A stretch of DNA of 30,932 bases from a virus (taxonomy: Duplodnaviria > Heunggongvirae > Uroviricota > Caudoviricetes): positions 1-30,932 of IMG/VR virus record IMGVR_UViG_2529293142_000025; one strand, given 5' to 3'. The translations under genes were made by a program, and so were the position numbers. Positions 1 through 17,198 of this stretch are shown here, piece by piece. The number at the start of each line of letters is the position of its first letter. Position 1 is the stretch's first letter. The notes under the pieces were generated by a model. It worked only from the letters and a program-made list of their open reading frames with translations. It was not told the DNA's origin and did not search any database.

Positions 1-335
1 CATCAGTTCGCCATGGGTAAATACCGGCACCCATCCGTCCATATGACGCCGCGATACCACCGCAAGACAGGGATGAATAATCGCATCGGTGTCATCTTCG
101 GTCAGGGAAGACAGTTCCTCAGCGATACGCGGGAGCATGGTTTCAAACACCGGTTTTAACTGCTCGAATTTCACGGTGTCGATTTTGCCATCAGCAGGCA
201 AACGGGAGCGAATGCTCCCGAAATCTGACATCATTCCCGCCAGTACCGGCAGAAGTTTGCGGGTCACTTTCAGCTGGTCAAAAACGCTGAGTTTTGCCGT
301 GCGATATTTCACACCTTTGATTTCGAATTCCATGT
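1..335 (-). CDS. phage tail-module protein, N-terminal part only (gene runs off the left edge of the window)
   Basis: ATG at 333-335 on minus strand with GGGGAG SD-like motif upstream; frame open to position 1 (MEFEIKGVKYRTAKLSVFDQLK...); absent from ORF track because no stop is in the window. Confidence 0.35.
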
Positions 336-336
336 A

Positions 337-777
337 TTAAAACTCCCCGAGAACCTGGTCAATCTTGCCGCAGTCAAACACCCACGGCATCGTATTACCG
401 GTTTTAGCGTTGGCGTTATCCGGTTGTTTCTGGAACGCAACACTGCGTGCCGTGATGATGTCGCCGCTGACCTTGTTGCGGATCACGATAACGTTATTCC
501 CCCATGTGGCAGAAGACTGGCTCTGTGCGTTATACGCCAGCGACAATTTTTTATTTGTCGGTGATGTCTTCAGAAGGTTAACGGTAATCGTCCCGCTTTT
601 TTCTGCATGGAGGCTGTGCATTACTTCACCATCAGCACCGATGGTCATGGTGTTTTTAGGACCGCCCATCGCAACCACAATCCCCTCTTCAGAACTTGCA
701 GAACCGTACCCGAGGTCAATCGAACCGGTCGGCCCGGTCAGCGTCGCAGTGACATCCATAAAAGAATAGGTAGACAT
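337..777 (-). CDS. putative tail tube protein (contractile-tail type)
   Basis: 146 aa ORF directly downstream of the sheath-like gene; size and position typical of a tube protein; family assignment from memory only. Confidence 0.4.
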   Translation of the reverse strand: MSTYSFMDVTATLTGPTGSIDLGYGSASSEEGIVVAMGGPKNTMTIGADGEVMHSLHAEKSGTITVNLLKTSPTNKKLSLAYNAQSQSSATWGNNVIVIRNKVSGDIITARSVAFQKQPDNANAKTGNTMPWVFDCGKIDQVLGEF

Positions 778-787
778 TCACTTCCCC

Positions 788-1933
788 TTAGCGAACAACG
801 TTAATCTGTACGTCAGCGTAATGAACCGCGCCTGCAAGTTTTATTGCAGCCTGAATCACCGGAGCCTTACGGGCTTCACGTTCTGATTGTGCCTGTTCAT
901 CCAGCGGCTGGGCGTATACGTAATAACCTTTGGGCAGTGTGTCACCTGATGACAACTGACCAAGGTCGCCCCCGTTCCATACACCCGGAGCAATCAGTCC
1001 ATTCTGAACGGCCTGATCCAGTGATTTTTCAACATTTGATAACAGTCGGGTAATACCGGCTTCAGTCTGGGGAACTTTCGTGGTGCTGGTATAAAGCAGG
1101 TTATAGAGGTTGGTCTGCACATAATTCTGTAACCAGTCCAGGCCGTGGCGTTCATCAAAGAAATCGCCGTTAGCCATCACTCCCTGCTGGAGGATAGCCG
1201 TATCATTCTGGTAGTACACGAATACATTGCAGTTTTTTGCATCAAGTGCCGATGCCTGGCTGACTGTCAGTGTTTCATACCCGACACCCGGCTCCTGCTT
1301 AAACTTGAGCGTAATCGCGGTATTACTGCCATTGAAATTAACCGTGAATGCCCGGCCAAATGCAGATAACGCAGCGTATTTATTACCCGATGAATACTGA
1401 ATAAAACTGCGTGAATATCCGGCATTTTTCAGTTTTGATGCCAAATCATCGCTGGATGCAGTCTGCAGGCATTTCTCATCGCTTGTCGTAATCGCCAGAA
1501 TACGGCTTACAGAAGAGGATTCGATCGCCGCAGCCACTTTCAGCCAGTCTGCATCCGGAATATCTTCATCGTCTGCAATCCCCAGCCCATACCATGAAGT
1601 ATAATCGAGCATGGCATTCACAGCCTGCTCCAGCGTCTCAGGCGTGGCCTGTTCGCTGTCTCCCTTCGTTTTCACCCAACGACCAACAAAAACCTCCTGA
1701 GGTTTCGGTGATTGAGAGAAAAACACCTGCGCAGCCTTATATTCTGGTGATTCCACGCCAAAATCTTTTCCAATATCTTCCGCGGCAGAATAACGGCGAA
1801 TGCGCTCACTTACCGGAATGATTGTGGACGGGCCGAGAATGAGTAATGCACCAAAATTTCGCCCTGATGCTGCACGCGGCGACATGATCACATCAACATT
1901 AACAACGTTTGATACAGGCAAGCCCTGTGCCAT
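788..1933 (-). CDS. putative tail sheath protein
   Basis: 381 aa ORF after the head-completion genes, followed by the tube-like ORF; resembles sheath proteins of PBSX-like contractile tails (memory-based). Confidence 0.4.
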
Positions 1934-1936
1934 AGC

Positions 1937-2563
1937 TTAATCTCCGAAAAAGATGACTGGTGCTTCCACCAGCGATTTAATACCGTACTCGCGCACAACC
2001 TTCCGGCGCAGACGCACCGTCATATCGTAGCGGCGGACCCATTGCTGATTAATAAGTTCAGGGAAGGGAGTCAGACCTGTGTAATCGCCAAGAGACAGCC
2101 CCAGCGCATTCAGTGCTGCGTTGTTCTGCGGTACAGATATACCGTCACGAAACCGGGACGCATACACCATCCCCGCCGGACCATAAAACGAAGCCATACA
2201 CTCAATCGTTTCATGCCGCCAGAGCTGAGAGCCATCATCGGTCTGTCTGGTGAATGCCGGACTGTCATCACCTGACCATCCGATAACCCCAAACGCACAC
2301 CAGTTCGTTTCAGCCGGTAGCAGTGGCGGCTGCTCTTTCTGCCAGCGCGGACGAACCATCCCGGCAGACAGACCGGAAACGTTACGCATCCACTGGCTTA
2401 ACAGCCTGTCGAGCGCTTCGTCATAATCCGGATCGCCACTGGTTGGTATCAGCCATCCGCGCTCTGTGCTGGTGTTATTGCTCAACCGGAGTTCCCCCAT
2501 CAAACGGCAGCAACTCACAATGCGCCTGAACGAATCCGACACCATAAGCTGTATACGGGTCAA
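1937..2563 (-). CDS. phage structural protein (neck/tail completion), start uncertain
   Basis: 208 aa ORF in structural operon; track start is TTG and overlaps the upstream gene by 89 nt; internal ATGs at about 2500 and 2392 are alternative starts. Confidence 0.35.
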   Translation of the reverse strand: MTRIQLMVSDSFRRIVSCCRLMGELRLSNNTSTERGWLIPTSGDPDYDEALDRLLSQWMRNVSGLSAGMVRPRWQKEQPPLLPAETNWCAFGVIGWSGDDSPAFTRQTDDGSQLWRHETIECMASFYGPAGMVYASRFRDGISVPQNNAALNALGLSLGDYTGLTPFPELINQQWVRRYDMTVRLRRKVVREYGIKSLVEAPVIFFGD

Positions 2564-2864
2564 CGAAGGTCACACGGTAATCACGGCCCTGATACGTCAC
2601 GATATCGGAATCACGGCCAGTCTGTCCCTGCGTCAGTCGCTCAGTCGTCACAATCAGAATTGCACCACTGATTACCTGCCCTGCCTGCATACGGCGGTTT
2701 TCCAGAGAGCGATCAACAGTTACGACTCCGGCAAACTGCTTTTTAACTTCACTGTCGCTGCCGATCCCGTCCTCATCCACCGTTTGCACTCGGCGTGTTA
2801 CCCACAAATTGAAGTCGCAAAAATCGGGGTCAAAAAGCACATCTGTTACATCAAGAGTCGGCAT
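2475..2864 (-). CDS. phage structural protein (head-tail joining region)
   Basis: 129 aa ORF, same strand and tight spacing within structural operon. Confidence 0.4.
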   Translation of the reverse strand: MPTLDVTDVLFDPDFCDFNLWVTRRVQTVDEDGIGSDSEVKKQFAGVVTVDRSLENRRMQAGQVISGAILIVTTERLTQGQTGRDSDIVTYQGRDYRVTFVDPYTAYGVGFVQAHCELLPFDGGTPVEQ

Positions 2865-3405
2865 CTTTATCCCTCACAACATGGGTAATGGCTCTGCGAT
2901 ATTGCCCGGTGTCAATTAATGGTTTCGCCAGATCGGTTCCCGGAGATTCGCCAGCAGCACGCCGGGCAAGTTCCAGTGTTGCCCCCTTGCGCCCCCGACG
3001 AGCCCGGGCTTCAACAGTGCTGTCAGCAAGCGGCGTAAAGCCGGTAATGGTCATGTAACGCCTGACGCCATTAGCGGCCAGCGTTCCGGCACGGTTGAGT
3101 GCGCGTTCTGCTCCCGCAGCATTACCATCAAGTGCAGCCTGCGCCGCGGCTTTGAGCTGCGGCACCGTCTGCTCTTCTGCCGATTTAACGCCGGGGACCA
3201 GGTGAGGTCGTGGCGGGATGTTCTGCTCTGGTGAGCCGTATTCGTTGAGGTAACCGATGCCCGCATTACCAAACGGAACATCATCCCGCCCGCTGTCTTC
3301 CGAAGGGATGCCGACCAGCACATCTTTTTTGGTTAACGACCTGAGCGCATCCAGAATGGCCTTAGCGTTATCCACCCTCGTTGTTACACCGCTTTTGAAA
3401 CTCAT
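2851..3405 (-). CDS. phage structural protein (head-tail joining region)
   Basis: 184 aa ORF; ATGA-type coupling to the upstream gene at 3402-3405. Confidence 0.4.
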
Positions 3406-3809
3406 AGCTGGCGACCGCCTGCACCGAACATCGTGATCAACTGATAAAATTCAGCGCCATATCGGGTGTTATTCCAGAAGCCTGCATCAGGATTCAGCGT
3501 CGCGCTGATGTCATAACTGACACTTACCTTGTCAACGGACTTTGAGGACTGAACACCATTGGTTGAGCCGCCAGGGCCACCAGCCAGCATCGCCCTGCTG
3601 TCAGCCGCCCAGAGCGTCATGTAGTGCGCAACGAACAATCCGGCAAAGTACGGAAACAACTTTTTGCCGGTGACGTTTTCGCTCAGCAGTTCATCTGCCA
3701 GATTCAGACGAAACTGGATTTGCGCTTCGGGATATTTGGCAGGGTCAGCAAACTGCGGGAAGTCGCGGCGAAAATCACTTACCGCTGGCAGACTTTGATT
3801 CTTTGGCAT
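3402..3809 (-). CDS. phage structural protein (head completion/connector-like)
   Basis: 135 aa ORF within operon. Confidence 0.4.
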
Positions 3810-3996
3810 TTTTTACCTCGTTACGCGCGTCTGTGGCTTTGCCAACGGATACTTCCGCGTGCGCACGAGTGAACCAGTGCGTGGCAACGTCTTCCTCCAC
3901 AGCATGACGGCCTTTAACAAACTCGCGCCGTGAACCGTCGGGAAGCGTGAGCACAAACGGGGTATGTACGTGTATTACTGCATTATTTTTTGCCAT
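3775..3996 (-). CDS. small phage protein downstream of capsid gene
   Basis: 73 aa ORF between major capsid gene and head-completion genes. Confidence 0.3.
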
Positions 3997-4037
3997 CGGG
4001 TCATCCTTAATGGCCCCGCCAGGGGGCCATATGGCTG

Positions 4038-4979
4038 TTAAATGCCATCAACGTACGAAATGGTTTCTTTGTACACTGGCTCGACTGCACCCAGCTTGCC
4101 GTAGTAAGTGACGATCTGATACAGACCGCGATACTGCACCGGCACGCTCTGAAGCGGAACCAGCGGGTAGCGGACGTATTTTTTATCGTTGGTGTACGCA
4201 ACCATGCGATCCTTATTCCCCACACCACGGCCTTTCAGCCATTTAACCGCGCGGATATTCAGCGGAACACCGTTCTGGTGATAGCTGATGGTGTTGGTCT
4301 GAAGGTACGTCAACAGGGACTGGTTACCCGCAGATGAAACGATGATGCTGGACAACAGAGCAAACTGCTCAGGCGGGATCAGCAAATCACGCGGAACCAC
4401 AGAGTAACCGGAAGCGGCCCACGCATCAGACAGCACCTGGTTAATGCTTGCGCGGATTTCGTCCGGTGTTGAGGTTGCCCACGTTTTGGCAGCGTTGTTG
4501 ACAGGCACACCGTCCAGGGTAACAAGACCTTTCAGGTTTAATGCGGAATCGCCAACATATACCTGTTCATCGTTATCCATCTGCCATTTCAGTTGCATAC
4601 CGTCATACTTCTGCGTATCAATCGGGCGGCCGACCTGCTGAGCAGCCTGCAATTCTATGACCGTCCAGCCAAGTTCCATCCCCCACAGGTTCAGCGGGTT
4701 ACCGGATTTGCCGATATCCACGTTCACGCCAGCAATAGCGGTTGAGTCTTTGCCTACCCAGTTTTTGCCATTCGGATTTGCACCAGTACCCGCAGCGGCG
4801 AAGCTGGTATTCGTCCAGCTGGAAATGTCATCTGCGATGGAGACATCTTCACGCAGTTGGATATCGCGGGTCCAGGTGTACCCCACCAGTGGCAGGTTCA
4901 GCGTCTGGTCGAGTCGCTCCAGCTCCCCGATGAGAAAGGCACCAGAGCTGTCAACGGTTGCCTGATCAAAAGTAATCAT
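4038..4979 (-). CDS. putative major capsid protein
   Basis: 313 aa ORF in the expected position after scaffold-like and decoration-like genes; typical size. Confidence 0.5.
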   Translation of the reverse strand: MITFDQATVDSSGAFLIGELERLDQTLNLPLVGYTWTRDIQLREDVSIADDISSWTNTSFAAAGTGANPNGKNWVGKDSTAIAGVNVDIGKSGNPLNLWGMELGWTVIELQAAQQVGRPIDTQKYDGMQLKWQMDNDEQVYVGDSALNLKGLVTLDGVPVNNAAKTWATSTPDEIRASINQVLSDAWAASGYSVVPRDLLIPPEQFALLSSIIVSSAGNQSLLTYLQTNTISYHQNGVPLNIRAVKWLKGRGVGNKDRMVAYTNDKKYVRYPLVPLQSVPVQYRGLYQIVTYYGKLGAVEPVYKETISYVDGI

Positions 4980-4990
4980 TCGTCTGTTCC

Positions 4991-5416
4991 TTAAATCTTC
5001 CAGGAAATTTCTGCATTGCCGTCAGCATCACCGGCACCTGTGAATTCAGCGTTGGTCAGCACCACGTTTTTGCCACTGACTGACGTGGCCATGAATCCAC
5101 CCAGCGGCACTTTGATGGATTCATCAGTGGAGACGACAACGTATACCGGGTCGCCTTTTTTGATGGTGCTGGCATCAAAATCAGAACCGAGATTAACGGT
5201 CACGTAGCCACGCTTCATTGCGTCGCCCGGGAAGTTCTTGCCACTCCCCACCTGGCGAACCATGTCCGGCTGCGAAGTGGTCGGATAAGGGCGCACATAG
5301 ATCCCCTTCACCTTGTCTGCGGTATCACCATCTGCCAGCGGCACGAAAAAACCGTCATCATCGTATTTACCAGCCAGCCCATAGGCAGCAAAGGCGTTAT
5401 CGGATTTAAGGACCAC
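4991..5416 (-). CDS. phage head protein (decoration/structural-like)
   Basis: 141 aa ORF immediately upstream of capsid gene. Confidence 0.4.
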   Translation of the reverse strand: MVLKSDNAFAAYGLAGKYDDDGFFVPLADGDTADKVKGIYVRPYPTTSQPDMVRQVGSGKNFPGDAMKRGYVTVNLGSDFDASTIKKGDPVYVVVSTDESIKVPLGGFMATSVSGKNVVLTNAEFTGAGDADGNAEISWKI

Positions 5417-5498
5417 CGGTTCGACGGTTAAGTCCTGCGGGCGAGAGACAGCCCGGCAATGCCAACAGGCATCCGGTACAGAAATACATTATTCATTT

Positions 5499-6373
5499 TT
5501 ACCCTTTACGGTTTGCCCAGAATTCGGCGTTTTGTTTGTTCAGGGAAGCGATACTGGTCATGCCCATGTTTGGGCGCTGTGCATCGCCGGTGGTGGCGCG
5601 GGTGTTTCGCCCTTTGGCAATCTCAGACACGGCATTAAACGCCATGTCGACCGATTGTTTCGGTAATTTGCGGATATCCGCATCACCGACTATCTGGCGA
5701 ACCAGCGTTTTGTCAGCAGAAGCCAGAACCTCACGTTTGAACGCGGTCGGTTTCATCTTACGGCTCAGATCAATACCCGGAACAATAACTTCGGCACGCC
5801 AGGCTGCGTCACCAGTAATCGTGGTTTCCTCTTCATCGTCCTCGCCGTCACCGGTCGGATTATCGTCAGGCTTATTATCGTTATCGCCCGTGGCATTTCC
5901 TTCCAGCTTAGCCAGCAGGGCTTTCAGTAATGTTTTGAGGTCATCATCACTGTCGCCGGTTGGGCCTCCCCCATCTCTGGTGCTTTGTCCGGTAGTGGTT
6001 GCTGCGGGGACAGGTTGATATTGAGATTAACGCCCTGCGGCAAATCCCCCTCATCTCCTGTAACCGATGCGGGAGCCGACTCCACCAGTTCGTTCATGGT
6101 GTCGGCATCTCCTGTCTTGATGGCCGCACGCATGCGGTTCCACCAGTTTTTCTTTTGATTTGCCATTGTGTCTCTGTCTCCAATTGCACAACGATTTCCG
6201 GCTCTGCCTTTAGGGACAAGAGCCACATGGTTTCCGGTAATATCGACCTGCTCAGCTTTACCTGGCTCGGTCTGCTCGTACTCCGCGTCATAGCCGCACG
6301 ACACTTCGCGCAGGCCATCTTCGATAAGCTGAATGGCGTTTTCGTCTTTGACGATAAGGTCAGCCAGCATCAA
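5499..6373 (-). pseudogene. head-assembly (scaffold-like) gene with a reading-frame break
   Basis: 149 aa ORF (5924..6373) ends at TGA, but a second frame with an acidic scaffold-like stretch (DNDNKPDDNPTGDGEDDEEETT) is open from 6026 down to 5499 with no start codon before ATG 5756; frames would join with one extra base in the C5 run at 5968-5972. Confidence 0.35.
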
Positions 6374-6717
6374 ATCAGACTGCTCACCGTCCCGCGCCGG
6401 ACATTCTGGAGGTGCCCGACAGCAAGCTCTTTCCAGTTCTCGGGATTTACCAGCCGCACATTCCCGTTTTCATCTTCAGGATGCAGAATCGTGATGCTCA
6501 TCCCTTCGAATGAGGCAAGCGTGGCCGGATGGAATACCTGCTCAGGAGAACGCGTGACGACTATTTCACCGAACTTATCGGGTTTCAGTTTTGGCAGGTC
6601 ATCAGCACCATAGAGCTGCTTACCTGTTCGTCCTATCGGCACGTCTTTGCACAGCAACGAGCCGTCAGCCAGCTGATAGCGGGTTTCCCCCAGCCGGGTA
6701 TTGAAAAAATATTTCAT
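6370..6717 (-). CDS. phage head-assembly protein (may belong to the same gene family as the adjacent ORF)
   Basis: 115 aa ORF, ATGA overlap with the 149 aa ORF. Confidence 0.35.
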
Positions 6718-6731
6718 GTGTTACCTGCGAT

Positions 6732-7505
6732 TCAGGCGGGATAAGAATGGGAGGTGGGAAAAACGATTTCTTTATAACAGCGACAATTCGGGAGCTCGCC
6801 AGCGTGACCGGTCATGCCATCAAGCGTTGGAGGTTTGCCCCATTCGACAAATTTACCTTCCATTTCCCGATGAGAATGCCTGACGTCACCATCTTCGGCT
6901 GTACGCCAGATATAACCATTCGAACCAATTGCCAGCGCACGCGCCTGATCCAGCGCGCCGGTTGCACGTCCAAGTTCAGTACGGGCAATCAGGTCAGCTC
7001 TGGACTTTGCTATATCACCCGATGCGGCTATTTCTTTAGCAAAATGTTCCGCTCTCCCACCGGTCACAACAGCTTCAATCGCCCGATTCTGGATGTCGTA
7101 CACCCTGTCAGCCGCCTCGAGGGGTAGCGATTTAATGTACTTAACCTGTTCAGCAACGATGGATTTCATCACCTGCCCTGGCGGGGCACTGTTTACCAGA
7201 TTGCGTAGCTCACGGCTGATGGTTTTGCTGTGTTTACGCCACTGCTCATCATTCTTGCGCACAATATCGGCGGTAAAGTTTTCCGCGACCTTTGTCGCCC
7301 AGGGGGTGATGATTTCACTGTAGCGTTCCAGCGCCTCAATAATTTCCGTGATACTGTCATTTGAACCATCGTAGTGACCATTTACGATGTCCCCTACCGC
7401 CCGCGCTATCCTGCGTAGGCTGGTTCGATACCGGATTTCCGCCTGACGGTTCCTGCGGTTCGTCATCAGGTTCGCCGATGCCGGGCGGCGCTTCATCTTC
7501 GGCAT
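6732..7505 (-). CDS. head morphogenesis protein, Mu F-like
   Basis: C-terminal motif ...WRTAEDGDVRHSHREMEGKFVEWGKP...GHAGELPNCRCY typical of F-like minor head proteins; located after portal; start uncertain (all ATG starts overlap portal by over 100 nt). Confidence 0.55.
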   Translation of the reverse strand: MPKMKRRPASANLMTNRRNRQAEIRYRTSLRRIARAVGDIVNGHYDGSNDSITEIIEALERYSEIITPWATKVAENFTADIVRKNDEQWRKHSKTISRELRNLVNSAPPGQVMKSIVAEQVKYIKSLPLEAADRVYDIQNRAIEAVVTGGRAEHFAKEIAASGDIAKSRADLIARTELGRATGALDQARALAIGSNGYIWRTAEDGDVRHSHREMEGKFVEWGKPPTLDGMTGHAGELPNCRCYKEIVFPTSHSYPA

Positions 7506-8823
7506 TCTCGATGTCCTCGTCGGTAATGGATGCCCCGATGCCGGTTACGTCAGAATTTTCTCGCAAATCAGTCATAGCGGCCTTCAGTGTCATCAGACCA
7601 TCACCCAGCGCTGTACTGATTGCGTTGGTAGTGTTTAACGCCACCGTTGAGCGATCGACATCAGACATTTGCCAGAGCGGGTTAAACTCAAACGTGAAAT
7701 CGTCCGGCAGCGGCTTGCCAAGCTCCGAACGATGCATGATGTCCAGTATCCGCCGCACCGGAAGACGTAAACGCCTCTCCTGCAACGAACTGATGCGGTC
7801 GTAATAGTTGGCAAGGTCTGCATCACCGGTAGAAAATCCTTTCGGGGACTGTCCGAACAACCGCACCAGTGGGATACCAACAGCGCCACTAATCTGTTCT
7901 GCAAACTGTGATAGGATGTCATCCAGACCACTGAAGCTGTACTGATGCGTTTCAAACTTATCCCGCGAGTCCATGAGCGTCATGCCTTCATTGCTCTGGA
8001 ACTGTCGAATCAGGTCGATATTCTTCAGCAACGCTTCATACGCAGGACCACCAAGTGCGATAAGCTCGCGTAGCTTCTCCACGCTGTAGGTACGCAAATG
8101 CGCTTTGTAGACCAGCTGCGCCGCGCCGACAGTAGCGCTGTCGAACGCGGTAAGACGATCCCAGATACGCTCTACAACCGACATTCCCCATTCGTTCTCG
8201 GTCATCTTCTGCTGAAATGGCAGCGTGACGCCATCAAAGCGAATCAGTCGACTGTGATGAATGCGCCAGGCAGGAATTCCCGTTGCTGTGGTCACCACAT
8301 CGTAAAACTCAGGTTTACCCAGGTCCGGCCCCATATCTTTAATGCGGCGGGTCAGTACCGGGTCAATCATCCAGCGGTCGAGCGGGAGAATCCCCTTAAA
8401 CTTGCCCTTACCGATGGTTTCGGGTCGCAGCGGGGTCATTGGTGCCTGCCCCTCAATCATGATGAAACCCACCGCGCCGCCGTAGAGACGCGACCATTTC
8501 AGCACGTCATTCAGCGCATCCCAGATTTGCAACTCATCCAGTTGTGATTCGAGAATGCCACGATCTTTTGCATCAATTTCCGAAGTGATGCGAATGCCTT
8601 TGCGGGTCATATCATCCGGGATAGCATCGACTGCTTCGCCGATGATCCAGGATGAACGATAGGACCATTCCACCAGCATGCGGTTACGACTGGTGAAATT
8701 AGCCCGGTAGGTGGATGCTGAGTGCTGGTTAGGTGTCTGCATCCCTACGCGGGCAATAAAATTCTCATAACCATCAGCTGTGGCCTGCGCAGTTCGCCGC
8801 AGGGCTTGTTTGTTTCGTGCCAT
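7357..8823 (-). CDS. portal protein
   Basis: 488 aa ORF immediately after terminase large subunit, acidic C-terminus; start shares position 8823 with terminase stop. Confidence 0.6.
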   Translation of the reverse strand: MARNKQALRRTAQATADGYENFIARVGMQTPNQHSASTYRANFTSRNRMLVEWSYRSSWIIGEAVDAIPDDMTRKGIRITSEIDAKDRGILESQLDELQIWDALNDVLKWSRLYGGAVGFIMIEGQAPMTPLRPETIGKGKFKGILPLDRWMIDPVLTRRIKDMGPDLGKPEFYDVVTTATGIPAWRIHHSRLIRFDGVTLPFQQKMTENEWGMSVVERIWDRLTAFDSATVGAAQLVYKAHLRTYSVEKLRELIALGGPAYEALLKNIDLIRQFQSNEGMTLMDSRDKFETHQYSFSGLDDILSQFAEQISGAVGIPLVRLFGQSPKGFSTGDADLANYYDRISSLQERRLRLPVRRILDIMHRSELGKPLPDDFTFEFNPLWQMSDVDRSTVALNTTNAISTALGDGLMTLKAAMTDLRENSDVTGIGASITDEDIENAEDEAPPGIGEPDDEPQEPSGGNPVSNQPTQDSAGGRGHRKWSLRWFK

Positions 8824-10226
8824 CAGGCCTGTCTCCCCAGCTGTTCCCAGATATCCAGCGATGTATCAATTGGCGCGAAGGCCATAATGAATGCGTCAGC
8901 AACGTTTGGTGACGGTATCTCGCGTTTTGCGAGGTCTTTTTTACTTTCGACCATCACACGTCCGTTACGGTCAAAATCGCGATGAGGTGTTGTCAGTTCC
9001 AGTTTCAGCTTTTCAAGCAACGGACAACGAGAATCTATGCTGATCAGCTCATCCACAGGATACTGTTCTCCGTTGTTAATGGCGTTAAACGTATTTCTGA
9101 AACGGTCAGCCACCAGCCACCATGCCTGAGCCTTAAGATTTGCGAAAAAGTCTTTGTTGGGGATGCCGTTGTATTCGTCATCTGGCTCATGCACACCAGC
9201 ACCGGCGTTAAACCTCTGGTAATTCACACGTCTCGCGTATGCATTCTCGCTCTTCCGGTCAGCGTTAATTTCAGAGAATTTAGCACCGGCAGACGCACCA
9301 ACACCGATAGAGTCGTAAACAATTTCTGCTTCACGCTCCAGCGCCGCCTGATAAGTACGCTGGCAGCTCTTCAGTAATTCATCTTCTTTGGCCTTCCATT
9401 CGTCGGCCCAGAAAACAACGGATCCGTGACGGTAAACGTTAGCGCACTTATCTGTACCACTGTCAGCCACGTCAAAGCCAATACGCTTTCTTCCACTGGG
9501 TTCGAAATTTAACGTTTTGTGCGCATCCACTGCGGCTTCTATCCAGGACAGTTTGATGATTGCCGCATCATCATCAGACTCCGGAACGCCCTCATACACA
9601 TGTTTAAAACCATCCGGATCACGGCGTCGCGCCGCGTCGATAACCTTAAGCATGGTGTCAGACAGAAACGGATTTTCGTCATAGTTAATTTTGCGGATGA
9701 GAGTGCCTTCGGGCGGATCAACAACGAAGTTGCGCCAGACGAAATCAGTAACAAGTCCGGGATTGAATATGAACCAGCATTCCGAACCCTCTTTACGGAT
9801 CGTTGGCTCCAGAATTTTCCACTGGTATTCCGTCAGTGCGTGGGCTTCTTCCAGCCACAACACATCGATCCCCTCCAGTGACTTAATTTCTTCGATGTTG
9901 CGCCATAATCCATAAAAAACAAATTCCGAGCCAGTAACCCGGTTAATGATTTTGTTGTTCAGAATACGGAAACGGTGCCGCAGGCCAAACCTGTCTATCT
10001 GAATTTTGAGCAGGGTATACACCGACTCTTCGATTTTGTTCTGGATCTGACGGGCACAACAAAAACGCAGGGTGTATTTATTCGACAGAAATATGGCAAT
10101 ACCAGCGGCATCCCATGATTTTGACGATGACCGGCCACCATAAAGCACTTTGTTACGTGCCCGCGTAGTCCAGAAACTACGTAAAGCCGGATTAAGCGTC
10201 GGTTTGGATGTCAGAGTAGAAGTCAT
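8823..10226 (-). CDS. terminase large subunit
   Basis: Walker A-like YGGRSSSKS near N-terminus, about 470 aa; start chosen at ATG 10224-10226 (alternative ATG at 10244); the longer track ORF start is probably not used. Confidence 0.8.
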   Translation of the reverse strand: MTSTLTSKPTLNPALRSFWTTRARNKVLYGGRSSSKSWDAAGIAIFLSNKYTLRFCCARQIQNKIEESVYTLLKIQIDRFGLRHRFRILNNKIINRVTGSEFVFYGLWRNIEEIKSLEGIDVLWLEEAHALTEYQWKILEPTIRKEGSECWFIFNPGLVTDFVWRNFVVDPPEGTLIRKINYDENPFLSDTMLKVIDAARRRDPDGFKHVYEGVPESDDDAAIIKLSWIEAAVDAHKTLNFEPSGRKRIGFDVADSGTDKCANVYRHGSVVFWADEWKAKEDELLKSCQRTYQAALEREAEIVYDSIGVGASAGAKFSEINADRKSENAYARRVNYQRFNAGAGVHEPDDEYNGIPNKDFFANLKAQAWWLVADRFRNTFNAINNGEQYPVDELISIDSRCPLLEKLKLELTTPHRDFDRNGRVMVESKKDLAKREIPSPNVADAFIMAFAPIDTSLDIWEQLGRQA

Positions 10227-10941
10227 TGAGGTCACGCTCTCCATTGCCATCATCAATACCTGCATCACGGCGAAGACGATCAGCCTCCAGAGACACCTTA
10301 TCGGTGGCGGCCTTGCGGTAGGCTGTATCAGCAAATATTTTTCCTACCGTCGCAAGCGTGCCAACGATGGACTCAATACGAACTGTATTGCGCATCATTG
10401 CTTTCTCGGCGGCGCTGATATTTTCCATCAGCATCTTCCTTTCCTGGTCCCCATTAGCATCTTCCAGCGACACCAGCCACCGACCAATATTCTCTGCAGC
10501 GACAAGGTTGTTAGCACGAAGGCGAAATAATTCGTCCTCGAGCGTCAACGCTTTAGCGTCCTCTATCACCTCATCTTTGAGCAGAAGGCGACGGGCATAA
10601 CCACCGTGTTTTAATGCCTGCTGGTTACCGGGTTGGAATGGGTTAGTCGGGGGATCGGTACGCATTCCGCGTATCGGTTTCGTATCCGGTGTAGCTTCTG
10701 TTTTTGGTTGCGTACCTTTTTGTGTAAGGCCAGTAATGGCAGGCTTTCTGCTGGTACGCACTTTTCTTTTTTGCGTACCATTTTTGCAAACCTGCGTACC
10801 GCCACTGCGTACCCAACCAAGCTTTTTAGCCCTCTTCCTGATAGCCCCTTCTGTTACGCCATATTTCTCGCCTATATCACGGAGGCTAAGGACTCCGGCC
10901 CGGTATGCCGTTTCGATGGCCTCCCAGTCCGGTTTTGCCAT
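10192..10941 (-). CDS. terminase small subunit (HTH DNA-binding)
   Basis: 249 aa ORF directly upstream of large subunit; N-terminal HTH-like LSLRDIGEKYGVTEGAIRKRAKKLGW. Confidence 0.6.
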   Translation of the reverse strand: MAKPDWEAIETAYRAGVLSLRDIGEKYGVTEGAIRKRAKKLGWVRSGGTQVCKNGTQKRKVRTSRKPAITGLTQKGTQPKTEATPDTKPIRGMRTDPPTNPFQPGNQQALKHGGYARRLLLKDEVIEDAKALTLEDELFRLRANNLVAAENIGRWLVSLEDANGDQERKMLMENISAAEKAMMRNTVRIESIVGTLATVGKIFADTAYRKAATDKVSLEADRLRRDAGIDDGNGERDLNDFYSDIQTDA

Positions 10942-10999
10942 GAATTTTTCCTCTTAGTGACATTATCGCAGCCCCTCACCGAAGGGCTGCTGTAATGCC

Positions 11000-11188
11000 T
11001 TAACCCAGTTTCGCTCGCACCAGAGCATCTTTTGCTTCAAGCAATTTACGTAACCCAGCCGACTTTTCCGGACCGTCTGGCAAAGATTCATCCATTACTC
11101 TTGCCAGTTCACCAATTGGCTTACTCACTTCCTTTAACGAAGTCGGAAGATGCTCATAATTGAAATATTTCATAATTGACGATTCCAT
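11000..11188 (-). CDS. small hypothetical protein upstream of terminase
   Basis: 62 aa; AAGGAGA SD placed 6 nt before the second ATG of the track ORF. Confidence 0.35.
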   Translation of the reverse strand: MESSIMKYFNYEHLPTSLKEVSKPIGELARVMDESLPDGPEKSAGLRKLLEAKDALVRAKLG

Positions 11189-11220
11189 CATTTCTCCTTA
11201 GTAAAACAATTATCAGGCGA

Positions 11221-11402
11221 TCAGTTCTGCATACACTGCCGGACACCGTCGACAATTTCACAGACCTGAGAAGCTGTATCGAAAAGCTGGCGCGCCTTAT
11301 CCAGGCTGACGCATCCCACCAGGAAAAAGGCACCAGTATCGCTACCAGTGCCCATTTCGCCGCCGTTCGCGGCATTCTGTGTGTCCAGTGTTTTCGGCTC
11401 AT
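11221..11402 (-). pseudogene. lysis-associated lipoprotein (Rz1/o-spanin-like), frame broken in a homopolymer run
   Basis: ATG 11400-11402 with AGGTG SD encodes MSRKHWTHRMPRTAAKWALVAILVPF...; the next frame reads ...FFLVGCVSLDKARQLFDTASQVCEIVDGVRQCMQN-stop at 11221; one extra base in the run at 11324-11328 (T5 on the coding strand) yields a 61 aa lipoprotein precursor with basic n-region, hydrophobic core and LVGC lipobox. Confidence 0.45.
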
Positions 11403-11416
11403 AACACACCTGGTTA

Positions 11417-11800
11417 TCAGCGTTTCAACTGAAAGTGAGGCCCGTCTTTCAGTGTTTTCCAGTCCCCGCCCCATTCGATGGCAGTTCCCAGCTCTGCGGC
11501 AGCCTGCTTAAATGCCTGCGCGATTTTCTCGTACAGAGGCCAGTCCCATGACACCTGGCTGCCAATGTAGGCCACAACATCCACCGCATCACCGGTCAGG
11601 TGGCGGCTGTTCATGGTCTGGCTCTTGCCTTCTGCAACCAGCTGTTTCTGGCGTTCTTTCGTGCGCAGACCTTCTGTAACACCGAAATCAACCTCCGTCA
11701 GCTCCAGCGCACGGCGAACGACAGCAACCAGCTGTGGTTTGACGCCCTCCAGATTTTTTTCACTGCGACGACTGAATCTGAATTTACCCGACATGCTCAC
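11417..11800 (-). CDS. endolysin, peptidase M15 (L-alanyl-D-glutamate/D-Ala-D-Ala peptidase type)
   Basis: 127 aa with H..D and GGDW-type motifs of M15 peptidases; sits in the lysis cassette after holin genes. Confidence 0.65.
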   Translation of the reverse strand: MSMSGKFRFSRRSEKNLEGVKPQLVAVVRRALELTEVDFGVTEGLRTKERQKQLVAEGKSQTMNSRHLTGDAVDVVAYIGSQVSWDWPLYEKIAQAFKQAAAELGTAIEWGGDWKTLKDGPHFQLKR

Positions 11801-12072
11801 CTCCGGAATGAAAGGATTTTTGAAACGTTCCCGCGTGCGCGTATTACCAGCACGCAGAACAGCAAATTAAGCCCCACCGCCAGCCAGTTCGCCGCTAACG
11901 GGCGACCACACAGATAGCTGAGGGGCGCAAAGGCATACAGCAGCATCAGCAGCCAGGCCAGCCATGACATCAGCGGTTTGTGTCTGGAGTCACGACGACG
12001 ATAAAAAAAGAGCGTCAGCACGATAACCGTGCATAACGCCACATTCAGCAATCCGGGAAGGTTACTTAACAT
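11797..12072 (-). CDS. small multi-TM membrane protein (holin/antiholin-like)
   Basis: about 91 aa with 2-3 hydrophobic segments; ATGA coupling to endolysin start at 11797-11800. Confidence 0.4.
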   Translation of the reverse strand: MLSNLPGLLNVALCTVIVLTLFFYRRRDSRHKPLMSWLAWLLMLLYAFAPLSYLCGRPLAANWLAVGLNLLFCVLVIRARGNVSKILSFRR

Positions 12073-12454
12073 TGCCGCCTCCTCCACCCCGCAGGCGGGA
12101 GAACAGGCCGGACACCAGTGATGCGATATCCTGCTGGTGGATGAACGACAGAATCTTCACCGACACCACCGCCACCAGCACCGCACACAGTGCATCCGCA
12201 GATGTACCGTCATAACCTGTTTTTGATGCAATCCAGGCTGACAGTACACGCGCCCCCAGTACACCAACAATGAACGACACCAGAAAATGTGCCGCCACAC
12301 GCCAGGCTGAAATCTTCTGCGGCATCGTTGCCACAAACAACGCCCCGGCGAACGCACCAAACACAATCCCGAAATCCGTTCCGGTAAACAGCCCGAATAC
12401 CGTCGCCCCGCCGAGCGCCGCAGCCGTGCCGGAACCGGATAAGGGTTCAGACAT
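12062..12454 (-). CDS. putative holin
   Basis: 130 aa Gly/Ala-rich membrane protein starting MSEPLSGSGTAAALGG; AGGAG SD 8 nt upstream of ATG 12452-12454; the track ORF upstream extension is not supported. Confidence 0.5.
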   Translation of the reverse strand: MSEPLSGSGTAAALGGATVFGLFTGTDFGIVFGAFAGALFVATMPQKISAWRVAAHFLVSFIVGVLGARVLSAWIASKTGYDGTSADALCAVLVAVVSVKILSFIHQQDIASLVSGLFSRLRGGGGGNVK

Positions 12455-12472
12455 ACTTTTTCTCCTGTAAAT

Positions 12473-12494
12473 AAAAAAGGGCCACCAGCGGCCC
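12473..12494 (-). terminator. Rho-independent terminator between cargo cassette and holin
   Basis: minus-strand hairpin GGGCCGCTGGTGGCCC followed by TTTTTT. Confidence 0.5.
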
Positions 12495-12545
12495 GTAAAA
12501 AACAACACCCCGTCAAAGGCACCCGCAGATGCCTTTTGTGTGGTG

Positions 12546-12698
12546 TTATTCAGATTTGCGCAGTAAAGGCCGGAGTACGGCCAGCGCCATCGCCACCAGC
12601 ACACCATCTGCCAGCACCGACATCAGCCGTCCGGTGAAATCCACCACCACTACCAGAAACAGCAGGATGGCAGCCAGCACAAGGCGCGCACTTTTCAC
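12546..12698 (-). CDS. small hydrophobic protein (50 aa, two predicted TM segments)
   Basis: GTG start with GGAG SD 8 nt upstream, overlapping the stop of the TerB-like gene; VKSARLVLAAILLFLVVVVDF...; below the ORF-track size cutoff. Confidence 0.3.
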   Translation of the reverse strand: MKSARLVLAAILLFLVVVVDFTGRLMSVLADGVLVAMALAVLRPLLRKSE

Positions 12699-13120
12699 AG
12701 GTACTGCTCCAGCGGTAACTGCAGCGCCTGAGCAATTTTCTTGAGCTGTGCTTCTTCATCCGGACCAATGCCATCCTGGTCAGCGATATCCAGACACAGG
12801 CACAGCACATTAACTGCATCATCAGTACCGGCAACATCAGCCAGCTGACGAAGGGCTTCGGCATTGGCAGAACGCGGCGACGCTTCATAACGGGCGCGGA
12901 TATTTGCACTCATTTGTGCAATCTCACCGGAGAACGGCGCAAAGGCAGGAAGTGCTGCAATGGTTTTCTCCAGTACCGCGACTTCTTTCGCGTCACAGGT
13001 GTCGTCAGCATATGCAATGGAATACGCGCCCCAGACGGTCGCCTCCACTGCGTCGCGGTTCTCCATCTTCTTCACTTCGGTAATGGCCTTGCGGGTTTTC
13101 TTTTTGAAAATACCAAACAT
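12695..13120 (-). CDS. TerB-like domain protein (cargo gene)
   Basis: 141 aa; two repeats of the pattern hydrophobic-A-x-D-[DG]-x4-E (AYADDTCDAKE and DIADQDGIGPDEE) as in TerB/DjlA-N helical domains; memory-based. Confidence 0.45.
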   Translation of the reverse strand: MFGIFKKKTRKAITEVKKMENRDAVEATVWGAYSIAYADDTCDAKEVAVLEKTIAALPAFAPFSGEIAQMSANIRARYEASPRSANAEALRQLADVAGTDDAVNVLCLCLDIADQDGIGPDEEAQLKKIAQALQLPLEQYL

Positions 13121-13493
13121 CGTGACTTTTCCTTTTAGTGGGTGAGCCTGCGCCCGGGGGTGACCAGCCCACAGAGAAAGTCACACTGACCATCCCGTAA
13201 GCTCACCCCTGAAAGGCTCTGTGGTTTTTGATGTGCGCCGGGCGTGGCGCGAAGAAATGAAATAAAGCTTATCTGAAATTAAGGTTAATACGGGGATTTA
13301 AACCATTTTTAAAGCTTAGTAATATCAACTCGTCTCCCGGAGGAGACAGATGCTTATGATTCTTCACGGACTTTGTCCCGCGGCTTTAATCCGACGGCCG
13401 CGCCTTTTTTCACCCTCCCGCAAATTGCTAACCAAGGACCTTGTCCCACGAGTATTCCAGAATGCTCGTGTCTTTTTTTGTCCGGAGAAGAAA

Positions 13494-13518
13494 TAAAAAA
13501 ACCGCCCGGTGGAGGCGG
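13494..13518 (-). terminator. Rho-independent terminator downstream of the tRNA genes
   Basis: minus-strand hairpin CCGCCTCCACCGGGCGG followed by TTTTTTT. Confidence 0.5.
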
Positions 13519-13800
13519 TAAAGGATGTATTTCCAGGTTTTGCTTAGTATATGATTAATCTCAATGTCATTTTTAGCGATGTTTACAACATCGGGATGGC
13601 ACATCACCGACCCTGTCAGGAAATACAAAATCTCCACCGACAATGCGCCATTCCGATGTTATAAAAAAATCAGCACTGATACCGTAATAAATAACATTCA
13701 TTACAGGACGGGATGTAGTAAGGAGTCAGGGTAAAACAAAAACATCCCACACATATAATGTGTCAGTGCCTAACACAACCTAGCATCTATTGTCCTCTGC

Positions 13801-13875
<75 letters not shown>

Positions 13876-13878
13876 ATA

Positions 13879-13954
<76 letters not shown>

Positions 13955-14202
13955 ATTGGCTCTTCAGGGGAGCGATATCACCGCTCAAAGAAGAGTTCCC
14001 CCTCAGAGCCGTTTTCGATGATACGATTTAATACTCCAATCGCAACAACACCTTGCGTCAAGTTATGTAAATTTATTTATATGTTTTTATTTTATGTGAA
14101 TAATTCACTTTCACTTAAAATATAAATGACAATATATAAACAAATTTATTTTGAAGGCGATTATTAAATGTCGTTTCTGATATCACGCCCCAGAAACAAC
14201 AA

Positions 14203-14222
14203 AACCCGCTCAATGGCGGGTT
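14203..14222 (-). terminator. terminator after roi-like gene
   Basis: minus-strand hairpin AACCCGCCATTGAGCGGGTT followed by T-rich tract. Confidence 0.4.
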
Positions 14223-14317
14223 CTGGTAAAGTTCATGCGCTTGATTCGCCTCGCGATACAGCTTTGCGAAGCGTACCGGAATTGAAGCAGTTTATGGCTA
14301 AAATTGCAAGAACTTTT

Positions 14318-14929
14318 TTAAAGCTGCATCAGCCTTTCCACCAGTTTATCTCTGCGAACAACAAACCAACCATTGGCTCTCGCCAGTTCCAGCCATGACT
14401 CAAGGGAAATAACAATATCATCATCCCGCAACTGAATTGTGGAAACAGTGACACCGCCTCGCTGATAACAGAGAACTCGCGTGTCGTAACTTTTCTGGCA
14501 TGAAGCTGGCGCTGACAGATCCTTTTGTCTGAAATAGCAGTCTTCCAGTTTTTCGAACACATCCCACGCCTGATCGGTTTCGAGCATTTTGGCGTGACGG
14601 GCTGCGCCTCGTTCTGTCCAGAGGATAAGGGAGCGGGCTTTCGGGGAAATTTGTAACCCTCTTAAAGATGGTTGCAAATTTTGTGAGTTACTTAAAGTAA
14701 CCCGCAAATTTTGTGAGTAGTTTAAAGCTACCCGCAATTCTTTAAGGTCATTACCAACAACTTTGAAAAAGTGTTTCCCTTCAACGAAGCGTGCTTTGTT
14801 CTCATGATGATTCTGGCGAATACGCACCGGCTCAGTGCCGTAAAGCTGCGCCAAAAGTTCGGTGGTAATAACAGGAATCTGGTTATGGGTGATAGGGGAG
14901 AGAGTTTCAACAGAAATTTGAGTTGTCAT
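14318..14929 (-). CDS. antirepressor-like DNA-binding protein (KilA-N/ORF6N-type, Roi-like)
   Basis: 203 aa; N-terminal ...LLAQLYGTEPVRIRQNHHENKARFVEGKHFFKVVGNDLKEL and ...SLILWTERGAARHAKMLETDQAWDVFEKLE resemble the two halves of the KilA-N/ORF6N fold; first gene after the late promoter. Confidence 0.5.
   Translation of the reverse strand: MTTQISVETLSPITHNQIPVITTELLAQLYGTEPVRIRQNHHENKARFVEGKHFFKVVGNDLKELRVALNYSQNLRVTLSNSQNLQPSLRGLQISPKARSLILWTERGAARHAKMLETDQAWDVFEKLEDCYFRQKDLSAPASCQKSYDTRVLCYQRGGVTVSTIQLRDDDIVISLESWLELARANGWFVVRRDKLVERLMQL
14671..14733. repeat. about 30 bp tandem direct repeat (2.5 copies) inside the roi-like gene
   Basis: GGTTGCAAATTTTGTGAGTTACTTAAAGTAACC / CGCAAATTTTGTGAGTAGTTTAAAGCTACCC / GCAATTCTTTAAGG on plus strand. 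Confidence 0.7.
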
Positions 14930-15090
14930 AATGACGCCCTCTGGTGGTTTCTTAATAACTCACCACCGACGACGCCAATCGTCTGGTGGTGAACTGTGCA
15001 GGGTTGGCGTAACCGGGAAACCGACCGGCGCGGATCTCTCCGCCCCCACACAGCCCACCATAATTCAGATGTGCGCGTGCATACGACAAT

Positions 15091-15112
15091 AAAAAACACG
15101 CTCGCGGCGTGT
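15091..15112 (-). terminator. tR-prime-like terminator downstream of late promoter
   Basis: minus-strand hairpin ACACGCCGCGAGCGTGT followed by TTTTTTATT. Confidence 0.5.
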
Positions 15113-15173
15113 ATCTGTCGCGGTCTCTATCCAGGACGCCAATCCCGACGCCAGATTTTGCTGGCGCGTGAGG

Positions 15174-15203
15174 AATATAGCCCCGGATAACAGATTGAGT
15201 CAA
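15174..15203 (-). promoter_or_regulatory. late promoter (pR-prime-like), Q-dependent antitermination region
   Basis: minus strand TTGACT, 18 nt spacer, TATATT; the -35 overlaps the Q stop codon, as in lambda. Confidence 0.5.
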
Positions 15204-15754
15204 CAGACGGTTTTTAGATCCCCGGAAGAGAATGCATCACGCATCGGCAGATAGAGCATAAACTCTGCCATTTTCAACCACGCATCTATGCGATTACGGC
15301 ACGTGGCGTAACACCACTCAGGGTGTGAACCATTCAGCAATTCAGCCATTTTTCGCTTAGTCATCCCCCTCCCTTCATATCGTTGCCGGAGGATACAAAT
15401 CAATCCTGGGTGTTCTGCCAGCACTTCACTAATCACCCGATCAATGCATAACGCCTCTGAATCGGTACAATGTACCAGCCAGCTCTTTTGCTTGCCGTTA
15501 ATCATATCCCGCAAAAAAGCCTCAAGTTCAGGTTTGTCCAGACCTGCTTTTTTCATCCTCCGGAGCGCCTCGTTAATTGCCGTTTTTGTCAGCTTTTTAG
15601 AGGCCAGCAACTGGTTGAACATATTTCCCGTCTTACCGCCGCCAATATACGACCAGCGCCCCCACATGCGCAGTTTTCCCTGAATCCAGACACTTTCCAA
15701 CGTGGTGAGACGAAGGTGTTCCCCGCTTTTGCCTGTATTTGTTGGGTAAATCAT
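15200..15754 (-). CDS. late-gene antiterminator Q-like protein
   Basis: 184 aa from ATG 15752-15754; position at end of nin region directly before the late promoter; the N-terminal extension in the track ORF overlaps the upstream gene. Confidence 0.55.
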   Translation of the reverse strand: MIYPTNTGKSGEHLRLTTLESVWIQGKLRMWGRWSYIGGGKTGNMFNQLLASKKLTKTAINEALRRMKKAGLDKPELEAFLRDMINGKQKSWLVHCTDSEALCIDRVISEVLAEHPGLICILRQRYEGRGMTKRKMAELLNGSHPEWCYATCRNRIDAWLKMAEFMLYLPMRDAFSSGDLKTVC

Positions 15755-17129: not shown

Positions 17130-17198
17130 TAAGTGCGGGTGCGTTGAGGATGCCTGACACATCAGAGGTGGCGAGGGATTTCTCCCTCGCCTGGTCTC

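Follow-up and report, generated by a model that had tools for sequence, protein, structure and literature searches.

A lambdoid myovirus prophage of the SEN34 kind with RecET genes of Rac type, seated in sdsR

Contents of the window and the structural module

The window analysed here is the whole of the 30,932-nucleotide stretch of IMG/VR virus record IMGVR_UViG_2529293142_000025. Almost all of the genes in positions 1-22482 lie on the minus strand and those in 22583-30198 lie on the plus strand, with host DNA beyond. Genes were annotated by profile searches with PHROG, Pfam, NCBIfam and Rfam and by sequence matches to the PDB, and relatives were sought with tblastn and megablast. The element is a lambdoid myovirus prophage resembling Salmonella phage SEN34, which carries a Rac-type RecET module and is seated in the host gene sdsR. 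A preliminary description, made from the sequence alone, had seen in it a Rac/lambda-type early region joined to a contractile-tail module in one hybrid prophage, and both the profile annotation and the relatives confirm this mosaic.

Positions 1-10941 (minus strand) form one uninterrupted late module in which every open reading frame (ORF) is a morphogenesis gene; position 10941 is exactly the start codon of the small terminase subunit (TerS). The features of the module are as follows.

1-333, minus strand: tail assembly chaperone, first 111 codons, with its ATG at 333-331; the gene leaves the window (Pfam Phage_TAC_15, E=9e-20)
337-777, minus strand: tail tube protein, 146 residues (Pfam KPP10_Orf10, E=9e-61, alias Phage_Tube_PhiTE in precomputed Pfam labels; Pam3 tube 8hdr, E=4e-9)
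788-1933, minus strand: contractile tail sheath protein, 381 residues (PHROG 205 'tail sheath', E=1e-135; Pfam DUF3383, E=4.5e-101)
1937-2485, minus strand: tail (neck) terminator (Pfam Phage_tail_terminator_9, E=1.4e-34; RefSeq orthologue 'phage neck terminator protein')
2475-3996, minus strand: four head-tail joining genes (PHROGs 939, 222, 302, 6497), namely
2475-2864, minus strand: head-tail joining gene 1
2851-3405, minus strand: head-tail joining gene 2, tail completion/Neck1
3402-3809, minus strand: head-tail joining gene 3, DUF4054 (E=3e-27; E217_gp27 in precomputed Pfam labels)
3775-3996, minus strand: head-tail joining gene 4
4038-4979, minus strand: major capsid protein, 313 residues (Pfam Major_capside PF09950, E=7e-88; Pam3 major capsid 8hdt, E=5e-19)
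4991-5496, minus strand: capsid cement/decoration protein, 5' end frameshifted (Pfam XM1_gp53_minor_capsid and Phage_cement, the E217 gp24/Pam3 gp6 families)
5499-6717, minus strand: DUF2213 (Pa193_gp24 family) scaffold/protease-like head gene, split in three ORFs (PHROG 1961)
6732-7466, minus strand: MuF-like head morphogenesis protein (Pfam Phage_Mu_F, E=2e-17; PHROG 324, E=7e-91)
7357-8823, minus strand: portal protein, 488 residues (Pfam Phage_portal_3, E=5e-106; PHROG 146, E=1e-174)
8823-10226, minus strand: large terminase subunit (TerL), PBSX family (NCBIfam TIGR01547, 141.4 bits against a cutoff of 105; Pfam Terminase_3)
10192-10941, minus strand: TerS, 249 residues (PHROG 370, E=1e-94)

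The sheath- and tube-like assignments of the preliminary description hold. In addition to its PHROG 205 and DUF3383 matches, the sheath is related to two solved sheath proteins, gp6 of Vibrio phage XM1 (PDB entry 7kh1, E=6e-41) and that of cyanophage Pam3 (PDB entry 8hdr, E=1e-23). The tube and capsid are likewise homologous by sequence to solved proteins. All of these relatives are distant, with Pam3 E-values of 1e-23 for the sheath and 4e-9 for the tube. The tube gene adjoins the sheath gene and is followed by the tail assembly chaperone, as in a contractile-tail module; the chaperone orthologue in relatives has 150 residues. The MuF-like protein is confirmed by its Phage_Mu_F match. Siphovirus families, which the preliminary description had set against its own contractile-tail reading, did not appear in the hidden Markov model annotation, the structural proteins having matched no lambda-type or other siphovirus structural family in the profile searches of 1-10941. 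The tail terminator gave only chance WD-repeat matches in the PDB. The capsid protein is indexed in identical form in 3,113 blocks of a public collection.

The cement, neck, tube and baseplate families in Pfam bear the names of XM1, E217, Pam3 and phiTE, which are generally described as lytic phages of Vibrio, Pseudomonas, cyanobacteria and Pectobacterium, respectively, without a lambdoid early region. We place the tail in the DUF3383/KPP10_Orf10 lineage of simple myophages, with XM1 and Pam3 among its solved members. Such solved phages serve as the mechanical model of a minimal contractile injection tail (PMC9942802, PMC11972413).

The morphogenesis genes had also been likened to those of PBSX-like elements, a label that fits the large terminase only. 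This protein shares the NCBIfam equivalog TIGR01547 and Pfam Terminase_3 with that of PBSX from Bacillus subtilis, and both elements encode contractile tails. The sheath and tube, however, differ when compared by family (not by direct alignment): at Pfam E<=0.01 the former matches DUF3383 only and the latter KPP10_Orf10 only, and neither matches PF04984 or PF09393, which we take to be the families of PBSX XkdK and XkdM, respectively. A tblastn search of 50,697 phage records found a homologue of the sheath in 1,109, mainly from phages of Vibrio, Pseudomonas, Escherichia, Salmonella, Klebsiella and Erwinia, with many of the matches annotated 'tail sheath'. The ten commonest genus names among these records are all Gram-negative, and Bacillus is not one of them.

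These comparisons bear on the possibility that the locus is a PBSX-like defective particle or a tailocin, domesticated to make contractile particles that do not propagate their own genome. Such a reading could draw on the terminase family and on the broken state of the head genes as sequenced, with sheath and tube intact, but it is opposed by the sheath and tube families, by the Gram-negative genera in which the sheath is commonest and by the full temperate set of integrase, excisionase, repressor and replication genes that sets the element apart from the defective PBSX type, a particle expected to package random host DNA and to lack integrase and replication genes. Furthermore, the head genes are intact in close relatives and SEN34 is plaque-forming. 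We consider a domesticated particle of this kind to be extremely improbable.

Early region and attachment site

The remaining features that define the prophage, from the lysis genes to the attachment site, are listed below.

11000-12454, minus strand: lysis cassette of two holins, an M15 endolysin and small downstream ORFs (Pfam Phage_holin_8, Phage_holin_3_7, Peptidase_M15_4)
11417-11794, minus strand: M15 endolysin
11797-12072, minus strand: holin
12062-12454, minus strand: holin
15200-16640, minus strand: DUF1367/YbcO/DUF1133 (Q-like antiterminator) block, upstream of the late operon (Pfam)
19801-22482, minus strand: rightward early operon (Pfam and PHROG)
19801-20229, minus strand: DUF977 gene
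20226-20891, minus strand: lambda-P-like gene
20680-21720, minus strand: DnaT-domain initiator
21792-22217, minus strand: CII-like/YdaT gene (weak Pfam YdaT match)
22201-22482, minus strand: Cro-like/YdaS-like gene (weak Pfam YdaS match)
22583-23001, plus strand: putative repressor, divergent from the Cro-like gene, 139 residues in relatives and split here (PHROG 5736 matched over 1-70 and 50-133 by two overlapping ORFs)
23092-28818, plus strand: Rac-type leftward module of kilR, ydaE, racC, recE, recT, ralR, the small RNA (sRNA) RalA and rcbA (92-96% nucleotide identity to K-12 Rac; Pfam Exonuc_VIII, RecT, Lar)
24884-27535, plus strand: recE
27528-28336, plus strand: recT, frameshifted at 27598 (NCBIfam RecT equivalog, 437 bits)
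28869-30198, plus strand: excisionase and lambda-type tyrosine integrase (358 residues, with an arm-binding domain), not IntR (Pfam Exc, Arm-DNA-bind_1, Phage_int_M, Phage_integrase)
30329-30360, no strand assigned: attR core of ~32 bp, the 3' end of host sdsR/ryeB (K-12 homology starts at 30329)

The early region (11000-30198) is lambdoid in organization, with integrase and excisionase, recombination and kil genes, a repressor, cro and cII set, replication genes, a Q-like gene and lysis genes recognized by Pfam and PHROG. A DUF4406 gene is also present, and RalA is identified by Rfam with 219 bits. DNA-level identity to the Rac prophage of K-12 is confined to 23092-28818. Outside this interval only the YdaT-like protein matches the K-12 Rac region (tblastn, E<1e-5), with 30% identity; at the same threshold the integrase, excisionase, repressor and replication proteins have no match there, and no match was found to racR, ydaS, ydaU or ydaV of K-12 Rac. 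The immunity and replication block (19228-23196) shares 94.9% nucleotide identity with a prophage of strain 2014C-3075, in which its neighbours are ydfB, ydfC and dicB. Because Rac-level DNA is limited to 23092-28818 and the immunity and replication block is shared with other lambdoid prophages, the early region is itself a mosaic of which only part is 'Rac'. Immunity, recombination and integration had together been described as Rac/lambda-like: the lambdoid organization and the Rac-type kil-recET-ralR genes stand, while the integrase, the attachment site and the immunity genes are not those of Rac.

The host DNA after attR runs through ryeA/sdsR, where Rfam places SdsR/RyeB and SraC/RyeA at 30326-30470, into yebY (30591-30932). 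In the complete relative in Escherichia coli FDAARGOS_1289 the host sequences on either side of the prophage have 32 bp in common (K-12 locus positions 2604-2635), corresponding to the 3' end of sdsR. The K-12 Rac prophage is associated with IntR and with ttcA. Since the element described here lies in the 3' end of sdsR beside yebY, not in ttcA, and has a non-IntR integrase, it is not Rac, either by position or by integrase. We note that the host sRNA gene sdsR/ryeB is antisense to ryeA. In Salmonella, a phage is known for which the attachment site falls in the final 23 bp of ryeB, and integration at this locus was reported to change RyeA/RyeB expression (PMC7380047).

Several further genes lie between the lysis cassette and the early operons. 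Upstream of the holins are a gene for a TerB-like 'tellurite resistance' protein (12695-13120) and two tRNA genes carried by the phage, tRNA-Gly(TCC) at 13801-13875 and tRNA-Thr(TGT) at 13879-13954; this block accompanies the lysis cassette in many E. coli prophages with other head types. An ORF6N-domain antirepressor-like gene (14318-14929) has directly upstream of it, according to Rfam, a C4 antisense RNA (14982-15065), an a1/b1 target (15128-15180) and IsrK (15091-15167). The segment 14318-15203, between the Q-like gene and the lysis cassette, looks like an RNA-controlled antirepressor module of the P1/P7 or Gifsy-1 type. Toxin-antitoxin systems of type I occur twice in the prophage, as hok/sok (hok-like ORF 17199-17411; sok 17352-17501) and as ralR/RalA (28354-28768), with RalA (28586-28764) antisense to the ralR/rcbA region.

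Relatives and block structure

The closest described phage is SEN34 (genus Brunovirus), for which electron microscopy showed a long contractile tail. It forms plaques, has lambda-like genes for regulation and replication and defines a new lambda-like cluster (PMC5261728). It is a temperate phage of 40.7 kb in which integrase, exo, RecT-like and gam genes, kil, repressor, cII, O/P, nin, Q and lysis genes are followed by the same structural gene order. Both elements thus combine a contractile-tail virion module with early and regulatory genes of lambdoid type, and they are syntenic gene for gene from the portal to the tail chaperone. Fourteen consecutive ORFs of the window, representing 12 genes from portal to tube, have 65-98% amino-acid identity to SEN34 by tblastn (sheath 65%, tube 73% to gp14, capsid 87%, portal 92%), and nucleotide identity is 83% over 61% of 1-10941.

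The similarity does not extend to the remainder of the genome. Megablast similarity to SEN34 is restricted to the structural module, and SEN34 is not among the 25 best matches listed for the early region. Only DUF1367 (55%) and Kil (39%) of the non-structural proteins of the window match it by tblastn. The SEN34 large terminase differs, with the C-terminal half alone matching (37% amino-acid identity), and SEN34 has lambda-type exo, RecT-like and gam genes instead of RecE/RecT, O/P replication, and another integrase and lysis cassette. The genus threshold in current phage taxonomy is ~70% whole-genome nucleotide similarity. As the terminase, early genes, integrase and lysis cassette differ, whole-genome similarity to SEN34 is too low for the two to be placed in the same genus or species. 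In the comparison with Rac and with sequenced myoviruses, to which the preliminary description had pointed, the virion genes follow SEN34 from portal to tube, and DNA-level identity to K-12 Rac is limited to the leftward module.

A closer relative is the prophage of ~41.6 kb in FDAARGOS_1289, which lies at the same site between pphA and yebY and is bounded by the 32-bp repeat. Over 1-10997 its structural module is 98.1% identical to that of the window, and its integrase and excisionase genes have 99.2% nucleotide identity. It also has kil-recET-ralR genes of Rac type and ydaS/ydaT-type immunity, and continues into tape measure, baseplate J, spike and fibre genes. It differs in having a lysis cassette of a lambda-family holin and a GH24 lysozyme, a ydaV-type replication block and another repressor. 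Within the MuF-like gene, positions 7241-7266 form a short, highly divergent patch relative to FDAARGOS_1289, with several compensating indels and no net frameshift in a module that is otherwise 98% identical; it may be a micro-mosaic or gene-conversion tract.

Four GenBank records, vB_EcoM-689R2, -611R5, -683R1 and -606R2, have 98.3% nucleotide identity over 1-8876; vB_EcoM-689R2 differs in its terminase and in a polymerase/helicase early region. All four were predicted as prophages by PHASTER in draft genomes and do not represent isolated phages (bioRxiv 10.1101/2022.06.29.498070). Among the temperate urinary-tract coliphages tabulated in a 2026 study, one has vB_EcoM-683R1 as its nearest GenBank match and SEN34 as its nearest classified phage (PMC12945033). 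Of 5,426 complete E. coli genomes, 339 contain the head module. At least 25 complete E. coli genomes are colinear with the window from position 1 or 20 to about 24,500-25,000, and some E. coli genomes have a Rac-type/myovirus prophage of the same kind in this position. In none of the complete E. coli genomes is >=80% of the window covered, and the exact mosaic is absent from that collection. The hybrid architecture is therefore real, yet it has already been described in SEN34 and is common in E. coli.

The full-length Rac-site prophage Rac-SA53 (KU052037.1) provides a further comparison. Its similarity to the window lies in the P-like protein ('ydaV', 94% amino-acid identity), residues 147-348 of the DnaT-domain protein ('ydaU', 89%), DUF4406, DUF1367 and YbcO (all in the range 89-97%), the Q-like protein (72%) and DUF977 (54%); the DUF1367/YbcO/Q-like block corresponds to irsA/ybcO/q of Rac-SA53 with 72-93% identity. 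No structural protein is common to the window and Rac-SA53, nor to the window and the lambda-like tail remnants of K-12 Rac, in which kilR, ydaE, racC, recE, recT, ralR/RalA and rcbA are shared, RacR has no homologue in the window and the YdaT proteins have diverged. The structural module of Rac-SA53 (25731-45341) is unrelated to that of the window, and when it was examined for a recognizable sheath only a Baseplate_J gene was identified. Its candidate genes in the sheath and tube positions (445 and 147 residues) had no Pfam match, and the 445-residue product also had no PDB match. A complete 'Rac' may itself not be a lambda-type siphovirus.

We also note 'Actinobacillus phage vB_Apl-pPE4' (PP818812.1), with 93.4% nucleotide identity over 52% of the early region, including the recE, recT and KilA-N genes. 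This is unexpectedly close for a phage attributed to Pasteurellaceae; the phage may have been assigned to the wrong host, or its DNA may derive from E. coli.

Taken together, the window consists of at least six blocks with different nearest relatives, joined at gene boundaries.

1-8876: portal to tail
8829-10997: PBSX-family terminase pair
10961-13955: lysis cassette, TerB-like gene and tRNAs
14190-17548: antirepressor, Q-like and nin-like genes
19228-23196: immunity and replication
23092-28818: Rac-type kil-recET-ralR, then 28393-30360: excisionase, integrase and attachment site

Homology to the vB_EcoM-689R2 type stops at 8876, the boundary between TerL and portal, and the terminase pair (8829-10941) is ~83.5% identical to that of Klebsiella prophage-type phages. 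FDAARGOS_1289 homology stops at 10997, and homology to a prophage with an HNH/P27-type terminase begins at 10961, between genes upstream of TerS. At the ten other loci shown for the TerB-like protein, the structural module that comes after the TerB/holin/holin/M15 cassette is of lambda type (Nu1/GpA/gpW/gpE), of HK97 type or of another non-SEN34 type. Elsewhere, early regions of NinB-G/Q, Prim-Pol/VapE or Rac type lie ahead of the head-tail module, with two different terminase sets. In published work (PMC3945230), mosaicism of this kind is driven by Rad52-like recombinases of phages, RecT among them, through relaxed homologous recombination, and by analogy recombination of this type could be the source of the gene-boundary exchanges in the window.

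The differing relatives of the modules, and the fact that K-12 Rac is itself a remnant, might instead suggest two adjacent elements, a Rac-like cryptic remnant beside an unrelated myovirus prophage or tailocin cluster. The lambdoid map is, however, uninterrupted on one strand from the Q-like gene through lysis, terminase and head to tail; one integrase and one attachment site are seen, and 10941-23000 contains no second integrase, attachment site or host genes. The FDAARGOS_1289 relative is a single element with one flanking repeat, and SEN34 packages the same architecture as one genome. On the basis of the single transcription map, the single integrase and attachment site and the single-element relatives, we reject the two-element explanation, which we consider extremely improbable.

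Single-base deletions and interpretation

As written, the sequence contains five single-base deletions that break four genes: that for the DUF2213 protein (two deletions, at ~5969, within 5969-5972, and at 6386-6388), cement (C4>C3 at 5451-5454), repressor (A7>A6 at about 22717-22725) and recT (27598). The successive DUF2213 pieces cover 1-103, 109-248 and 328-416 of PHROG 1961, and the cement ORF has 141 residues compared with 167-168 in relatives. The four deletions of the structural module are all homopolymer contractions (C4>C3, T6>T5, C6>C5 relative to one allele, and C3>C2). Intergenic homopolymers are also contracted (5495-5500, 17046, 23839 and 24784). Further contractions relative to close relatives are found at 11323, 12456, 13224 and 13494. 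By our own reading of the indel lists, clean single-base indels relative to close relatives comprise roughly 17 deletions in the window and 2 insertions.

The structural-module deletions are absent from all 21 relatives for which DNA was aligned (contig-level indels were not listed for eight loci), and each of the 20 relatives with gene calls encodes a 406-residue DUF2213 protein and a 167-168-residue cement protein. Exact look-ups of the capsid and portal proteins returned many relatives, none with the deletions, and a look-up of the exact truncated 115-residue DUF2213 fragment returned no record. For the early region the comparison is closer, since 16 kb of the window is identical, apart from homopolymer lengths, in three independent draft assemblies, with 0 substitutions over 14886-30932. 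Relative to NEOK01000029.1 and AATCFV010000030.1 only three homopolymer contractions are found (T6>T5, A7>A6 and A6>A5), two of which are the repressor and recT frameshifts. The repressor (139 residues) is intact in both of these drafts and RecT (269 residues) in all three. These two contigs and AFDY02000035.1, from the third draft, all end ~6.1-6.4 kb to the left of 14886, near window positions 8530-8800. These ends, just inside the portal-to-tail block (boundary 8876), suggest that in those strains the head-tail module is present twice, a duplication at which short-read assemblies break.

In our view, the single-base deletions are probably homopolymer under-calls of the source assembly, which create false pseudogenes. 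The alternative is that the frameshifts are real and that this copy is a defective, decaying prophage without scaffold, cement, repressor or full-length RecT, cryptic like K-12 Rac. Four disrupted genes are what such decay might leave, but every deletion is a homopolymer contraction, intergenic runs being affected as well, and sequences that differ in homopolymer lengths alone over 16 kb have the typical signature of a technical cause. There are also no insertion-sequence (IS) elements, large deletions or nonsense substitutions, and a lysogen would be unstable if its repressor were broken while its lytic genes were otherwise intact. We therefore regard a decaying prophage as unlikely. A narrower version, in which the deletions are real and their concentration in head-assembly genes (DUF2213 twice, cement), with neck, sheath and tube intact, marks a SEN34-type prophage early in conversion to a head-less, tailocin-like contractile particle, appears to us very unlikely.

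Our overall interpretation is that the window very probably holds ~30.3 kb of one temperate lambdoid E. coli prophage that has a SEN34 (Brunovirus-like) contractile-tail virion module, was inserted by its integrase in the 3' end of sdsR/ryeB and was assembled by module exchange. The complete prophage would measure roughly 42-44 kb: the window ends inside the tail chaperone gene, ~13 kb of tail genes and attL lie beyond it, and in relatives baseplate and tape measure genes follow the module immediately.

Several observations weigh against parts of this interpretation. The AFDY02 draft assembly, which differs from the window by two contractions only, has the same repressor A7>A6 deletion, and this independent occurrence favours a decaying prophage. 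So does the clustering of the four structural-module deletions within 940 bp (5451-6388), with 45 other runs of >=5 bases in 1-10997 clean, which a uniform sequencing-error process does not predict. No near-identical relative was found over 1-10997, where the best are 98.1-98.7% identical, and the deletions there could be real; with a best relative of 98.7% identity, the structural-module frameshifts are less firmly settled than those of the early region. The left third of the prophage (tape measure, baseplate, fibres and attL) falls outside the window. The virion morphology, inducibility and packaging mode that we would assign to the element come solely from SEN34 and from family membership.

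The preliminary description had taken the element for an intact version of what is degraded as Rac in K-12. With its other integrase and other site it is not a version of Rac, and because the window stops in the chaperone gene and the frameshifts stand as written, we do not conclude that it is intact. Neither 'intact' nor 'degraded' is established for this prophage.

By homology to known lambdoid phages, the divergent switch of repressor, Cro-like and CII-like genes would keep the lysogenic state. Upon induction, the leftward operon would yield Kil, RecET, RalR, Xis and Int, and the rightward operon the replication proteins and the Q-like antiterminator. The latter would then turn on a single late operon encoding holins and endolysin, TerS/TerL, portal, MuF, scaffold, cement, capsid, neck, terminator, sheath, tube and chaperone, which would continue past the window into tape measure, baseplate and fibre genes.

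The prophage illustrates clearly how enterobacterial lambdoid phages exchange modules: its lysis cassette and its head-tail module are each found with several different partners in other strains, and a Rac-type RecET module travels with a myovirus-type virion. By inserting at the 3' end of sdsR, such prophages may affect the paired sRNAs SdsR and RyeA, as was reported for the Salmonella phage at this locus (PMC7380047). Beyond correct annotation the finding matters little; the appropriate label for prophages of this type is SEN34-like lambdoid myovirus, and neither Rac nor PBSX-like.

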